From Eledone cirrhosa (taxonomy: Eukaryota): 64,000 bases of DNA. Positions 3,593 to 26,318 of this stretch are shown piece by piece; within the stretch, counting starts at the first letter, position 1; the number at the start of each line of letters is the position of its first letter. The notes beneath the pieces were generated by a model. That model made no database searches. It was not told the origin of the DNA and worked only from the letters and a program-made list of their open reading frames with translations. The position numbers were made by a program, and so were the translations under genes. The stretch covers positions 88,226,001 to 88,290,000 of the forward strand of contig OZ024741.1 in the NCBI GenBank assembly GCA_964016885.1. Reading direction: 5' to 3'.

Positions 3593-3651
3593 GGCCTGGT
3601 CAAGTAACAACCGCTGTTGATATTTATTCTTTTGGAATGTGTGCTCTCGAA
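3593..3651 (+). CDS. NRBP1: NRBP exon (phase 1-0)
   Basis: ttccag/gtgagt; (G)PGQVTTAVDIYSFGMCALE, kinase subdomain IX. Confidence 0.95.
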
Positions 3652-4120
3652 GTGAGTGGATGTTATTTTCTTCAGTTATTTCCTGTGCAACCCACACTCA
3701 TAATAATTGTTTCTATTTGATGGCACAAGGCCAGAAATTACCCCAGTATATTACCGGTGCTTTATATTATCGACCCCGTAAGGATGAAAGGCAAAGTTAA
3801 CCCACACATAATAATGACATGGTTTGTACACTTTACAGTAGGTCGCAAAACTCGGAATACTGGTAGAATCTTCAACACTGAATATAAAATTTATTAAGTA
3901 AAATCCTGGTAGATTTCATATCAAATATGAAAATAGTTGTCATTTATATATATATATCAATTGACATATACATTTAAAATAACATATCAATGCTCAGATT
4001 TATTCCTTGGAATCTTTCTTTGAGCTTCTCCTACATGTGATATGGTGCATTTTTGAAATTTTCTCAAACATGACGTCTATACTTTTGAATGTAATATATA
4101 TATATATATAAATATATGCA

Positions 4121-4217
<97 letters not shown>

Positions 4218-4524
4218 TAATATAAGACTCAAAAATATGTGTACGCACACAAATACACAACCACACCCATGACACACCTGTACCCTCTGCCTTGGACTCC
4301 ACTCTCGAATGCCGGACTACTCGCCTACCACCCCCAACCTTCTTAATAAATTTTTCCAAACTCTGATGTACCTACCTATTTTCTCTCTCTCCGAACTCTC
4401 CATTTCCTAACAAAGTGCTTCCATCTGAAGTGCCAAACTACTTCTTCTTAAGCGTGATCTTAAGACTTTGCTTTTGCATCCATGTTTGTTATTTCTTATA
4501 TATATATATATAGGAACAAGTAAG

Positions 4525-4618
4525 ACCCCGATGGCTGAGCTCAAGCCGTTTCGACGGCTAATTCTGGACTGAATGAAAATTTATTCTGGTATTTAAATAG
4601 CCGAGCTTATCAAGGGGT
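4525..4618 (-). ncRNA. Degenerate type I hammerhead motif
   Basis: Minus strand ACCCC-TTGATAA-GCTCGGCTA...TAGCCGTC-GAAAC-GGCTTGAGCTCAGCC-ATC-GGGGT; stems I-III pair, core has two changes from CTGATGA. Confidence 0.55.
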
Positions 4619-5016
4619 AATTCCATATATGGTCAAAGAGATAATCACCAGGATTGGTCACATCACAAGTTAGTAGTAAATCTGTGATGGCAAATTGGTG
4701 GGGGAAGGGGTAGCTGAACCTGCCGGTAGGAGAAAAAGGGAGAGGGGGTGGAGTAGACCCATTCATGCGTTGGTAGTGCCGGCTACAGCTGGGTGTGAGG
4801 TCAAAGAGGATACTGGGGAGGAAGTCGAAACGGTAAGTAGAACAATGAAGGGTAAAACTATAAAAAGTACTGAGAGAAAAAAAAAAAAAATAAGCAAAGT
4901 CTGGTTACTAAGACTTAAGTCTCTCGCTATTGCTAGGCTAAAGAAATACATAAATAAATAAATAAACAAATAAGTGAATAAAAGAATAGATAAATAAATT
5001 AAAAAAACACCCCTAA

Positions 5017-5604
5017 ATTTTCTTTAGGCTCATTGAAAAACACTTCCCACCACAACACCGCTACCACAAGATAATTAACAAAAATACCATCAAACTCTCT
5101 TACAGCACTACACCTAACTTCGCACAAAACATCGTCTCCTCCAACAACAAAAAACCCAACCCCGATGGAAGAAACAACCTAAATAGCAGTGGAGAGCCAA
5201 CCAGGAGGTGCAACTGTCCTGATAGATCCAGTTGCCCCCTCGACAACAGATGCAGAGACCGTAATGTGATCTACCAGTGCAATGTGAGCACGGACACCTC
5301 CAACAAAGCTTATATAGGATTAACCGCATGTGACTTCAAGACCCGGCTATACCAACATAGACATACCTTCCGAAACCCGGCCCGGCGTCACGCCACTACA
5401 CTTTCGGGCCACATATGGGACCTCAAGGACAACAACATCAACTATGATCTCACTTGGAAATTACTGTCCAGAGCCAACTCTTACACGGGAGGACACCGTC
5501 CGTGCAATTTATGCTCGGAGGAAACTTTACAAATGCTGTTTTCGACGGACCAACTCCTAAACAAGAAAGATGAACTGGTTACTGCATGTAAACACCGATT
5601 TTGA
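5017..5604 (+). mobile_element. Penelope-like element 3' ORF remnant: Cys linker + GIY-YIG endonuclease
   Basis: Open frame FFRLIEKHFPPQHRYHKIINKNTIKLSYS...CNCPDRSSCPLDNRC...VIYQCNV...AYIGLT...FKTRLYQH...CNLCSEE...LNKKDELVTACKH. Confidence 0.85.
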
Positions 5605-6106
5605 ACAGCAAAATTGAACGTTCACTTTACTGTAACCATCGTTTAAAAACGACTTTTTCTTTTTTTAAATGCATATAATGTTATCTTTTTACACCACCAT
5701 TTGCAAATTTTTATTATTTTTATTTCATATTTTTATATGTTTATACACACGATATCGCTTTTTATAATAATAGCACTAAACACTGTTTTTTAGACCCCTT
5801 TAGAAATATCCTGCTACTATAATAGCCCCAATAACTTGTCTATAATTCTGTACTACATTGACCCCTCTAACTAAATTTTGTCCAAACAACACCACTAGAA
5901 GAATTTACTTCCCCCGCCAACCCTAACACGTCTCATTTAGCTAACTGCTGCCAAAACATTTTCTTCTATACAATCTCTACTACTCTGACAGTCTTGAATC
6001 CTAAGACTACCGCCCCGTTACTTGCTTCCCTCTTCCTCTTCCCTTCCTACCTCCTACTTTCTCACATATCTAGTGTATAAAATATTCTCCTATCATTCTA
6101 CCATAA

Positions 6107-6223
6107 AGGTCTGACGACATGGTGTGTTCTCTTACAGTGTACCTACGATTTATGATAATATTTTTATATTATACAAATAGCGAGGTATAGGTAACCCACA
6201 CACTATAGAAACAATTGTTACCT
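6107..6223 (+). ncRNA. Type I hammerhead ribozyme at the PLE 3' end, extended stem II
   Basis: AGGT-CTGACGA-C-ATGGTGTGT...ACACACTAT-A-GAAA-CAATTG-TT-ACCT; palindromic CAATTG stem III as in PLE minimal hammerheads. Confidence 0.7.
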
Positions 6224-6269
6224 AGTAAATTCTTTATACCCGCATTTCCGTTTCATAAACTTCTTCTTC

Positions 6270-6304
<35 letters not shown>

Positions 6305-6864
6305 AAACCTCCTAGGCTTCCCCTTGAACCAGGACTTGACATCCATGTCTAATGTCTCAATGTAAGTTATGGCATTGCCCCTAAGGTCTTGCAGGAAGTA
6401 GTGAGAAGGCCTGATATGGCCCTTATTACTCACAGTGGCCTCCAAAACCATGTCAGTTGGGAATTTGTTGTACGTAAGAGTAAGGATCTCTGGGGTTGAA
6501 ACAGAGCTATTTATCATTCTGCTTGTCCGCCTTTTATTCTAGGTCAATAAATGGTATAAAGATGTTTATTGTCTGTTTTAATTTTCTCATAGGTAGGTGT
6601 AGAATATAGGCAAGCAAAATAATTGCTGTCCCTCATTTGACACATAGCAACAAAATTTGAACTTATGACCATGTGATCAGTAATTTATTATGTTAACATA
6701 ATGTTTACTGTGCCACCATGAATGTTTCAGTAAATAAACTTGCTCCCATATCCATTATTTATATATATATATATGATTTTTTATATGTGACTTGAGTAAT
6801 ATGTATTATTTGTGTCTTTATACTTAAATAATTAATAATCCCTCCACTCTTATTATTTGAACAG

Positions 6865-6960
6865 ATGGCAGCTCTAGAAATCCAAGGAAATGGTGAAGCC
6901 AATGTGACACCAGAAGCAATAAAATGTACATTAGAATCTTTAGAAGACTCATTGCAAAGG
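6865..6960 (+). CDS. NRBP1: NRBP exon (phase 0-0)
   Basis: acag/gtaagg; MAALEIQGNGEANVTPEAIKCTLESLEDSLQR. Confidence 0.95.
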
Positions 6961-12805: not shown

Positions 12806-14611
12806 TGCCATTCATCCTTTCAAGGTCAATAAAGTACTATTCTGGTACTAGGGTCAATTCTTCCTCTATATCTCTTTATAACTTCCCTTCCCTTTCTCAC
12901 GCTCTCTTTTCGTAGAAGAATTTAGCTCTGTTCAGACCTGGAGAGTGAGGGGCTCTACTAGGTTTAAATACCTGACACTATGTCATAACAGCAGTCCTAC
13001 AACTGCATAAGGAGTTATGGGCCTATGGTTGGATATCTTGGGCTATATTATTCAATGTGTCTTTTCCTTTTTAAGTTGTTAGGACAAGGTTTGGAATAGA
13101 TTTGGCTATTATTTCTAGCAAGCCAGTTAAGGATCACTTCTATTTACAGGTCTCTACAAGAACTACCGTATATACTTAAATATATGCCAATCTGAATATA
13201 AGCTGACTCCCTTTTTGTGTTTGACATATAGGCAAAAATCTAAATCCCTTGTATAAACTGAAACAGCTAATTAAGACATTGTGTTTAGAAAGAACGGTTT
13301 TGAATGAGTGAAGAATATATTTATGAAGTATTAATATTTTGATATTTAAAATGTTTCAAGTTGTTGTTTCCCAACTGCGTTATATAGTGATTTTTTTCTT
13401 ACCAATTTTCAACTGTTTTAAAGGCCATATGCATCCAAAGCACATCAAAAACAATAGAAAAAATAAATTTTACCTCCAATGTGAAAATATTTTAGCATCT
13501 CATTTACATAGAATTTGAAGTTTGGAAAATCAGCAAAATATAGATCTTAAATATAAGCCGACCCCATTTTACCATTGTTTTCTTTCATTTTTGTCATATT
13601 TCTCAATTTATATATGGTAATCAGTAGCCTCTTGTTATAAATAATTTCACTATGATTATGTGCAAACACCTTATCATTTACCAACTATTCAACATTTTAA
13701 ACTGCTACTTTTTAGTTTAATGACAATCTAAAGTAATAGTGCCATGATAAAATGCACCTAGTAAACTCCTTTAAAATAGCTGGTGATAAGAAAGGTGTCT
13801 AGCCTTAAAAATTATGCCAAAACAGAATGAGACATGAACCCTAACCTGTACTGATTATTTTAATGTGTAGTTCTAAATATAATTTTATACAGCAACTTTA
13901 CATTTTTTTGTGTAATACTGCATGTGTTTACGTGGTAAATGATGGTTAAAACACTCCTAAAATGTTTAAGATAGCTAATGCTTCTCAGACTCAGAGAATA
14001 TCAAATACTAGGTCATGGCTCCTGCTTCAAAGATTTGTGTAGTGCTAAAATTTCCTTAAAATAAATCCTGCCAACCCATCTGATAACTCAGAATAACAAC
14101 CCATGTTAGTATGTATATCCATGCTGACATGGGTTGGACAGGTCATCATGGTCAGCAGCATCTTATACACGTGACAAGAAAACCAGCCAACCTCCCTCAG
14201 TGTTATACATGTCTTACAGTTTGGACTGGGTGCATTTTATCATGTCACCACCACTAGAGAGATTGCCGCATGCAAGAAGGACTAAAGCATCCTTTCTATA
14301 GCATCATCACCATTTCACTTCCATTTCTCCATGCTAGCATGGATTAGACAAATTGTCCTGTTGTGGGCAATGCTAGGTCAGGTGACCATGTCTTGCACAT
14401 ACAGAACTGATTTTGGCTTCGTTTTTACAGCTGGATGCCCTTCCTAATGCCAACCTCATTTACAGAGAGTACTGGGTGCTTTTTGTCGTATATATATATA
14501 GAAATGTATGATAAAGTTACATGTGTGTATACAAAGTGGGTAACCAAGTCTGCACCAATCTGTATATAAATAAACACATATTTAATATGTAGGCACATAC
14601 AGCATCATTAT

Positions 14612-16471
14612 CATCATTAACTGTTACAAGGGTAAAGGAGATGCCCTAGATAGGAGTAACTATAGAGGCATTAAATTAATCGACCAGATCATGAAGGTCA
14701 CGGAAAAAGTAATAGCGCAACTAATCAGAGAGAGAATTGATCTAGATGAAATGCAGTTCAGTTTTGTGTCAGGCAAAAGTACCACAGACGCTCTTTTCAT
14801 TGTACGACAACTACAGGAGAAGTACCTAGCTAAAAGTAAACCCCTATACTTAGCTTTTGTTGACTTGGGGAAAGCCTTCGACAGAGTCCCCCGTTCCATT
14901 ATCTGGTGAGCTCTTAGAAAACTAAGTGTTGACGAATGGCTTGTGAGAGCTATATAAGCCATGTATAAAGAAACAGTCGGCAAGGTTAGAATTAACAACA
15001 AATATAGTGAAGAGTTTAGTGTAAAAGTTAGTGTTCATCAGGGCTCTGTTCTTAGCCCCCTACTATTTATTATTGCCCTTCAGGCTATAACAGTGGAGTT
15101 CAAGACCGGCTGCCCATGGGAACTCCTATACGCAGATGATCTAACGCTCATAGCTGAATCAATGGCCGAGCTAGAGAAGAAATTCCAAACATGGAAGCAC
15201 GGCCTAGAATCAAAAGGCCTTAAAATTAACCTGGCTAAGACTAAAGTTTTAGTTTGTAGGAAAGAAAATAAGGCGGCGGTCCCTTCCGGGAAATGGCCAT
15301 GCTCAGTGTGTAGGAAAGGCGTAGGTAGAAACTCCATTTTATGTCCCAAATGCAAAGTATGGGTGCATAAAAGATGTAGTGGGATCACAGGTAAGCTAAC
15401 TAAGAACATAGATTTTACATGTGGCCGGTGCTCTGGTGCAATAAGTAGCAGCAAGTGCCCACAAAATACTAGCTCTTTCAATTGCGCAGAGGGTTCTATA
15501 GAAATAGTGGACAGCTTCCGTGACCTGGGTGACAAAATCAGCAGTGGGGGAGGGTGCTCTGAAAGTACAGTAGCTAGAGTCAGAACTGGATGGAAAAAGT
15601 TCAGAGCTTATACCACTATTAGCCGCTAAAGGGTTCTCCCTAAAAATGAAAGGCAGGTTGTATGATGCCTGCATACGAACAGCAATGTTGCATGGCAGTG
15701 AGACCTGGGCATTGTGTGCAGAGGATATACGCAGACTAGAGAGGAACGAAGCTTGTATGCTCCGCTGGATGTGTAATAGTAATATACGTGAACGGCAAAG
15801 CATAAACGAACTAAGGAAAAAATTAGAAATAAAAGGGATCAGATGTTGTTTACTCGAGAGAAGGCTACTTTGGTATGGACACGTGATGCGCATGAAAGAC
15901 GACAGCTGTATAACAAAGTGCAGGGCAATAAAGATAGACGGTAGCCACGGAATAGGCAGACCCAGAAAAACCTGGGACGAGCTGATAAATTCCGACCTCA
16001 CACACTTACACCTCTCCAAGACAATGTCACTGGACCGAGACCTTTGGCGGTACTCAGTAATAGAGAAGACCCGCTTTACCTAAATACAAAGTAACACCTA
16101 CTACAGTCAGTAGGCATCTCTAACAAAATACACCCCGTCCCACTACCCCCACCCCATCCACACCGCCCCTTTCAATGTAAAGTTATGTTGGTGCCACAAC
16201 ATCCAGGCCGAAACAAATGAGATCGTGTAGGTGTCACGACAAAAAAAACACACAGTCCACGCTGTAATGTGGCCGTGTAGGCAACACGGTAAAAACCTCC
16301 CAGCCCCACACTGTAAATGTGGTTGGTGTTAGGAAGGGCATCCAACTGTAGAAAACCCGCCAGACAGTCCTATGCGAGCAAGACAATCACTCTTGCCTCA
16401 AGTGGGAAAACTCCCGTCCAAACCCATGCAAGCGTGGAACACGGACGTTAAACGATGATGATGATGATGAT
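14612..16471 (+). mobile_element. 5'-truncated, decayed RTE LINE (family A)
   Basis: RT with YADD, PHD insert and C-terminus broken by a stop and a frameshift; 3' UTR and (GAT)n tail. Confidence 0.95.
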
Positions 16472-26220: not shown

Positions 26221-26318
26221 GGGACCCCCGATGGCTAAGCTCCTACCGTTTCAACAGTTATTTCTGAACTGTTCAGAAATAGCTGTTGAAACAGCAGGAG
26301 CTCAGCCATCAGGTTCCC
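26221..26318. repeat. ~100-bp imperfect palindrome
   Basis: GGGACCCCCGATGGCTAAGCTCC...TTTCTGAAC t GTTCAGAAA...GGAGCTCAGCCATCAGGTTCCC. Confidence 0.85.

Follow-up and report, generated by a model that had tools for sequence, protein, structure and literature searches.

A Penelope-associated hammerhead motif with a 90-nt structured stem II in Eledone cirrhosa

A hammerhead-like motif in the window (the whole 64-kb stretch of Eledone cirrhosa DNA analysed here) carries 90 nt between its two catalytic boxes, which raises the question of whether it is a genuine hammerhead motif and what such a long stem II might do. The CUGANGA, GAAA and NUH boxes are present at 6107-6223 together with three stems, of which stem I is open, and it is near certain that this is a type I hammerhead motif of a Penelope-like element (PLE) (Table 1). 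An earlier note on this DNA, made from the letters alone, had proposed a Penelope-associated type I hammerhead whose stem III is palindromic and whose long stem II pairs further, and the analysis supported these points. The boxes, stem I, the GUU triplet, the 9-bp helix and the C6118/A6207 mismatch all lie where they had been placed, the stem III palindrome is present and measures 8 nt, and the inner pairings TACCT/AGGTA and TAATAT/ATATTA fall within the predicted rod with pair probabilities of 0.92-1.0. The canonical G10.1-C11.1 pair is absent at 6118/6207. Self-cleavage is predicted after 6219, the position of the cut, after U17, being the one that we take to follow from established hammerhead numbering.

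The relaxed motif search that the note had proposed was carried out with a type I descriptor on both strands. The result showed that 6107-6223 was the sole match in 64 kb, while 100 block-wise dinucleotide shuffles of the window gave none, indicating that the motif is not a chance occurrence. A search of Rfam with gathering and E-value thresholds matched the motif neither to a hammerhead nor to any other meaningful family. The Rfam hammerhead models also recognized none of six short-stem Hydra-like loci, and the miss is therefore not due to the long stem alone. Thus, the idea that this variant escapes the usual searches held for Rfam and for descriptors with a short stem II span, which would miss 6107-6223, but the long stem is not the sole reason. 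The 90-nt span also exceeds the helix II of up to about 8 bp with a small loop that is the criterion for minimal PLE hammerheads.

Table 1. Features of the hammerhead motif and of the insertion that contains it (positions in the window)
Feature	Position	Strand	Basis or remark
NRBP exon, upstream	3593..3651	+	97% identity to Octopus NRBP entries
NRBP intron with insertion	3652..6864	+	GT...AG, phase 0
(TA)n tract, left insertion end	4497..4512		sequence
Family B distal 3′ UTR, inverted	4510..5007	-	90-95% identity to family B 3′ ends
Second hammerhead motif, family B	4525..4618	-	antisense to NRBP
Family B ORF end: linker CxCX5C, endonuclease region, CxxC, CxH	5015..5600	+	98% identity, 19/19 other B loci
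Open frame of family B ORF end	5017-5604	+	translation
Family A 3′ part: last 25 codons, 3′ UTR, hammerhead, element end	5599..6273	+	92-99% identity, 29 A loci
Stem I, 5′ strand AGGT	6107..6110	+	pairs with ACCT 6220-6223
Catalytic box CUGANGA (CTGACGA in window copy)	6111..6117	+	position 7 = 6115
Stem II, 90 nt	6118..6207	+	C·A at 10.1/11.1, 9-bp basal helix, interrupted rod, 4-nt end loop
9-bp basal helix of stem II	6119-6127/6198-6206	+	one G-U
Outer internal-loop motif	6135..6191	+	CAGUG 6135-6139 facing UAGG 6188-6191
Inner internal-loop motif	6147..6181	+	GAUUU 6147-6151 facing UAGC 6178-6181
Catalytic box GAAA	6208..6211	+	read from sequence
Stem III, 8-nt palindrome ACAATTGT	6211..6218	+	predicted dimer interface
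GUU triplet	6217-6219	+	read from sequence
Predicted cleavage site, after U17 of GUU	6219..6220	+	hammerhead numbering
Poly(A)-signal-like hexamer AGTAAA, directly 3′ of stem I	6224..6229	+	family A comparison
(TA)n tract, right insertion end	6270..6303		sequence
NRBP exon, downstream	6865..6960	+	97% identity to Octopus NRBP entries

The motif lies about 50 nt upstream of the 3′ end of its parent element, here called family A, which has at least 773 copies; among 1039 candidate copies, the 40 that were scored were all 98-100% identical. At locus L031, two hammerheads 3029 nt apart enclose a reverse transcriptase-endonuclease ORF, so that full family A copies carry a hammerhead in both flanks, as terminal repeats do. 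The ORFs contain RWK, DKT, CxCX5C, CxxC and CxH and have a C-terminal endonuclease; at their ends the copies have (TA)n or a shared tail. A linker CxCX5C (not CX2-5CxxC), with CxxC and CxH around E and N, occurs in families A to E, and, on inspection of the translations by eye, the CCHH motif appears to be missing from the endonuclease. RWK, DKT, CxCX5C, CxxC, CxH and (TA)n insertion are given as marks of the Hydra clade (PMC8557442, section 11). Judged by its protein motifs and (TA)n insertion, family A is a young Hydra-type PLE; a protein database search gave nothing closer to it than about 45%. With its 3029-nt unit and ORF, it differs from the short non-coding tandem units of non-LTR retrozymes. 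Numerous hits without an ORF may be truncated or non-autonomous copies.

The window copy itself is not a simple family A insertion. Its location in sense orientation within an NRBP intron, as the earlier note had it, was borne out by the two flanking exons on the plus strand. PDB and Atlas searches with these short exons gave weak WNK-kinase matches or none. The insertion at 4497-6303 is a chimera of two PLE families, in which an inverted 3′ end of family B is followed by the ORF end of family B in forward orientation and then by the 3′ end of family A, with (TA)n at both outer ends. In 20 of 29 other family A loci the match to the window starts at 5599. The join between the two families has a 2-nt overlap and was seen in none of the 29 other A loci or the 19 other B loci. 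The chimera could have arisen from a single event primed on two different RNAs or from nested insertion followed by deletion. The ORF at 5017-5604 was considered as the ribozyme's own and rejected; it belongs to family B, whose endonuclease region is 36% identical in protein sequence to that of family A, and a Pfam search with the window ORF gave no match. The family B hammerhead combines a U3-A8 core variant and a G-C first pair with a stem II that spans 55 nt and a stem III that is long and nearly palindromic; the window copy is changed at 16.2 (position 4532). In a sister subfamily of family B, copies with intact ORFs are arranged in tandem arrays of about 3.5 kb (L042-L059, L088, L095-L102), and at 26226-26316 the window has a self-complementary fragment with about 80% similarity to the stem III region of family B.

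The window hammerhead is one member of a large class in the genome and not a one-off. The genome was searched with the pattern CTGANGA-gap-GAAACANNTGTH, which covers one stem III type only, and with reversed patterns as controls. The results showed 10,263 matches with a gap of 8-37 nt (87 in the reversed control), 3,021 with 38-59 nt (51), 10,102 with 60-89 nt (80) and 7,420 with 90-119 nt (82). Stem II spans of 60-119 nt thus amount to 17,522 matches against 162 in the control, a count that includes false matches, since a nearer core was present in three of the 81 examined. For this one stem III pattern, short-stem descriptors therefore undercount PLE hammerheads, which bears on PLEs reported as lacking them, such as the half-core Naiads (PMC8557442). 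Forty regions picked for diversity from the first 100 listed 60-89-nt matches and the first 30 of the 90-119-nt matches yielded 81 hits, of which 64 were distinct after removals and formed 31 clusters at 85% identity. The hammerhead lay 40-75 nt upstream of the element end, marked by a simple repeat or shared tail, in 61 of the 81 long hits. Elsewhere in the genome the stem II span is 55 nt in family B, 38 in C, 26-27 in D and 20 in E, with a range across families of about 11-100 nt. Among 78 Hydra-like metagenome loci, a hammerhead was detected in 55, with spans of 10-29 nt throughout, and 23 gave none.

Several other hammerhead types were observed in the genome. Family D (L069-L094) has two hammerhead motifs within one long 3′ UTR, the upstream one with G at 17. 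Family E (L176) is very young and has 832 codons, a CCGAAGA core variant, a short stem II and an 8-nt palindrome. Another very abundant short-stem family often occurs as close inverted pairs. A 93-97-nt stem II with a predicted two-hairpin branch was seen at L248, L249, L257, L262-L264 and L276, with no upstream ORF seen in the flanks examined, and a 47-62-nt group without the two-loop motif described below comprises many diverged families (L207, L208, L213, L216, L218, L226, L229, L241 and others).

The earlier note had named conservation of the core across family copies as a check and had suspected that the C·A mismatch weakens stem II. The 3′ core and stem I were fully intact in 44 of 50 family A copies. 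The mismatch is real but is not a defect of the window copy: it is the family state, with C at 10.1 in 761 of 773 matches to a 20-nt pattern over the 5′ core and another base in 12. In the 32 long-stem sequences analysed (the 31 cluster representatives and the window), the first stem II position was unpaired in 24 and G-C in none, and PLE-X1_cBra has the same C·A first pair (File S2, PMC8557442). Members of this group usually leave the first stem II position unpaired, and PLE hammerheads do not require G10.1-C11.1. Position 7 varied by subfamily among the 50 copies, with 27 C, 16 T and 7 A, the seven A copies having been chosen deliberately, so that the frequency of A does not reflect a random sample. 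In the 3′ core, none of 17 positions had shared variants against 32 of 297 upstream, although the numbers are small. Stem I reached 4 bp in 18 of the 32 and was short in 14. The hexamer downstream was AATAAA in 42 of 49 family A sequences, the window copy carrying the rarer AGTAAA, and A(A/T)TAAA occurred within 30 nt past the cut site in 29 of 31 representatives and upstream in one of 31.

The long stem II was analysed by folding and by comparison among copies. Positions 6118-6207 alone fold into a single interrupted rod at -26.4 kcal/mol (z = -4.0; one of 1000 shuffles was equally good), and the entire 131-nt region gave a folding z of -2.3. The rod of family A is under selection. Substitutions at 6127-6206 were compared among 50 copies found by their 5′ pattern, the first 30 taken by position and 20 by hand, seven of these for A at position 7, with the structure taken from the window sequence alone; a substitution was called shared when found in at least three copies and private otherwise. 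The result showed that none of 16 shared substitutions breaks a pair, compared to 16 of the 29 private substitutions (Fisher p = 1.8e-4; p = 5e-5 relative to random placement). The covariation check raised in the note had a divided outcome: both-side changes were found inside family A at 0 of 37 pairs (29 copies and the window, with L132 omitted for a deletion), but were found in 12 other sequences at 7 of 12 pairs. At A6148, in the inner loop, the window copy has the minority state, G being present in 41 of 50 copies.

Two nested internal loops, each 5′-YANUK facing 5′-YAGN and separated by a 5-7-bp helix, were found in 18 of the 32 sequences and in 26 of 6400 shuffles, by a motif that was defined by eye on the same sequences and that in one of the 18 (L236) is off register. 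Under a strict rule the motif was present in 11 of 32, the window excluded, and the figure of 18 allows a bulge. In the 12 non-A sequences it was RNAalifold that predicted the middle helix with the both-side changes given above; a wider 16-sequence alignment, in which four sequences were misaligned by one column, gave no consensus structure. For the named structure, 91% of cells were paired versus 84% in shuffles and 26-39% with slid partners, and 26 double changes were counted versus 11 in shuffles, with none of 500 shuffles as high, these controls ignoring the relatedness of the sequences; two measures based on pair counts did not exceed the shuffled values. Conservation is higher in the loop nucleotides than in the helix that separates them, and these loop nucleotides recur in families with a stem II identity of only about 50%.

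A model was built from the stem II interiors of the 12 non-A sequences, without the core and without family A. In the 64-kb window it ranked 6121-6204 first (18.1 bits, a rough E of 0.041), and four of five family A loci scored, weakly, at 15.8-18.2 bits. At E ≤ 2 it missed the L233/L220 and L273 hammerheads and some motif-bearing families, and its best E in the 78 metagenome loci was 0.96. In a tree of the 14 hits with enough upstream ORF for the endonuclease, which holds no named reference elements, 11 grouped with family A at 100/100 and three fell outside. The 11 comprise four other long-stem families, all motif-bearing, and the two-loop module appears to mark one PLE subclade. Long types without the module, 14 of the 32, include the type of about 60 nt and the branched 95-nt type.

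Earlier publications already describe hammerheads in PLEs, the Hydra clade, a Hydra family from octopus and first stem II positions that are unpaired, and the new part is the conserved 90-nt stem II common to a branch of elements. Like the window motif, the Hydra-clade hammerheads, including that of Hydra-1_Obim, belong to type I and sit close to the 3′ end of an element that has a C-terminal endonuclease and is inserted in (TA)n, with a short palindromic stem III and a first stem II position that is frequently unpaired (U·U); unlike it, the stems II listed are 3-7 bp with loops of up to 10 nt, as against 90 nt with two internal loops (Craig et al., 2021, PMC8557442). Across the entire table in File S2 of that paper, loop II does not exceed 34 nt (PLE-X1_sMoe), and Hydra-1_Obim and family A are different families as far as the hammerhead and the visible protein sequence tell. 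The minimal PLE hammerheads share the pLTR location, a 4-5-bp stem I, a palindromic stem III region with a predicted dimer and the U3-A8 core variant found here in family B, but their helix II measures 6-8 bp and G10.1-C11.1 is conserved, where the window motif has the C·A and rod (Cervera and de la Pena, 2014, PMC4209133). The Anolis Poseidon hammerhead PAc is likewise near the start of reverse transcription and is a functional precedent for protein-assisted cleavage; it belongs to another clade and overlaps the ORF start, and the available part of the paper reports no long stem II for it (Frangieh et al., 2024, PMC11167929). Non-LTR retrozymes are also type I, PLE-linked, high-copy animal repeats (PMC7229834; bioRxiv 10.64898/2026.07.22.740005), but as short non-coding tandem units they differ from family A, a 3-kb coding element (PMC7229834). 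Viral type I hammerheads with a 'long helix II' also exceed the usual length, although 'long' there means 6-8 bp, with a long helix III and monomer cleavage (PMC13725137). A literature search yielded no description of a long structured stem II, a result on which supplements on PLE hammerhead variants may bear, and the main text of a 2026 Octopus vulgaris repeat paper mentions neither hammerhead nor ribozyme (PMC13282606).

The role of the rod is less certain than the identity of the motif. Folding of the monomer gave a buried fold at -29.0 kcal/mol, in which the core pairs with the cut-site strand, versus -25.2 for an active-like fold, and the A15.1-U16.1 pair had a probability of 0.06. A double hammerhead joined through the palindrome was predicted at -61.6 kcal/mol versus -58.0 for two monomers, and a non-catalytic dimer was predicted to be more stable still (-66.6 kcal/mol). 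The reading that we favour, with a probability of roughly 0.5, is that the 90-nt rod would serve as a docking site for the element's own reverse transcriptase-endonuclease and gate the predicted dimer-dependent cleavage. It is favoured because metazoan PLE hammerheads cleave weakly and as dimers (PMC4209133), because the anole Poseidon hammerhead cleaves only with the element's protein, itself a predicted dimer (PMC11167929), and because of the paired loops: the spacing of two similar internal loops by roughly one turn of the helix suggests that a protein binds there. By folding prediction, a single copy alone would keep its core buried and two copies would pair through the 8-nt palindrome. 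In a full-element transcript, the two copies 3029 nt apart might then form a double hammerhead upon protein binding, the cleavage of which would release unit-length RNA. Reverse transcription would begin about 50 nt downstream of the cut site, and the template would therefore be uncut or re-ligated RNA. Against docking stand the greater predicted stability of the non-catalytic dimer, the absence of covariation at all 37 pairs in family A, the lack of the inner-loop A in most A copies, the weak model hits to family A, a stem I of 4 bp in no more than 18 of the 32, the insertion by the anole element in vitro despite catalytic mutations (PMC11167929) and the short-stem families that thrive in the same genome (10,263 matches), so that the rod is not needed by all PLEs. 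As a more tentative extension, this octopus PLE branch might have turned stem II into a two-site protein-docking rod, that is, a protein-switched ribozyme in thousands of copies, with one protein both finding the template and licensing cleavage. The role of the hammerhead in PLE retrotransposition is an open question (PMC8557442; PMC11167929), and a conserved covarying module inside a ribozyme offers a definite, mutable target for the study of protein-RNA recognition and cleavage control.

The conservation of the loop nucleotides above that of the intervening helix would also suit a rod that activates the ribozyme by RNA alone, its loops docking with stem I, or with the partner rod of the dimer, in place of the usual loop I-loop II contact and allowing protein-free cutting; contacts between stem I and stem II loops are what drives fast hammerheads (PMC3088659). 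The cut-site region and the 3′ strand of the outer loop are complementary over 7-8 nt in the same place in family A and a sister family. We consider this reading unlikely, as the loops are at least 15 bp from the core and far from the 4-bp stem I, and the complement, which occurs in just three of the 32 sequences (two families; p 0.11, 0.13 and 0.017), would block the core rather than help it; it is possible that it represents an off-state. In the window it pairs 6188-6194 with 6218-6224, and in the sister family (L272) plain stem I is only 1 bp. General pairing between cut site and rod was considered and rejected, being not above shuffles in most representatives.

A further reading, to which we would likewise give only a small share of the probability, is that the hammerhead is catalytically negligible and that core, rod and AAUAAA together form a 3′-end signal for RNA end formation or positioning of the reverse transcriptase. 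The hexamer past the cut site in 29 of 31 representatives (one of 31 upstream), the distance of 40-75 nt to the element end in 61 of 81 long hits, the lack of a G-C first pair in every representative, the short stem I in 14 of 32 and the unimpaired in vitro insertion of the anole element with catalytic mutants (PMC11167929), where cleavage is thus dispensable, are in its favour. However, a free position 7 with a fixed 3′ core is the pattern expected from catalysis, small as the numbers are, and U·U first pairs are tolerated in published active hammerheads. As a neutral hairpin expansion, the long stem II would be tolerated solely for holding the core boxes together, and its inner sequence would have no role; this would fit the wide range of spans among families (about 11-100 nt) and the other long types without the motif (14 of 32), but pairs distant from the core are preserved (none of the 16 shared substitutions breaks one) and the loop nucleotides recur despite stem II identities of about 50%. 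This reading is very improbable, being largely refuted by the pair preservation, covariation and paired-cell tests.

The earlier note had also inferred that the motif could cut the host pre-mRNA, a claim that the analysis did not support. The copy is in sense orientation in the NRBP intron with its core intact, and it might in principle cut NRBP pre-mRNA and so lower or regulate NRBP. However, the family has at least 773 young, nearly identical copies, this one shows no sign of conservation specific to its locus, and a second sense copy was found neither in the window nor in the preceding 60 kb (124 kb examined). Since the core is predicted to be buried in the monomer and a sense partner is lacking nearby, NRBP pre-mRNA is unlikely to be cut to an extent that matters, and a host-acting role for this copy is very improbable. 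The window copy would be a truncated passenger that likely cuts rarely, and for NRBP it is probably of no importance. A later NRBP intron contains broken ORF fragments of an RTE-like non-LTR retrotransposon on the plus strand (14586-16083).
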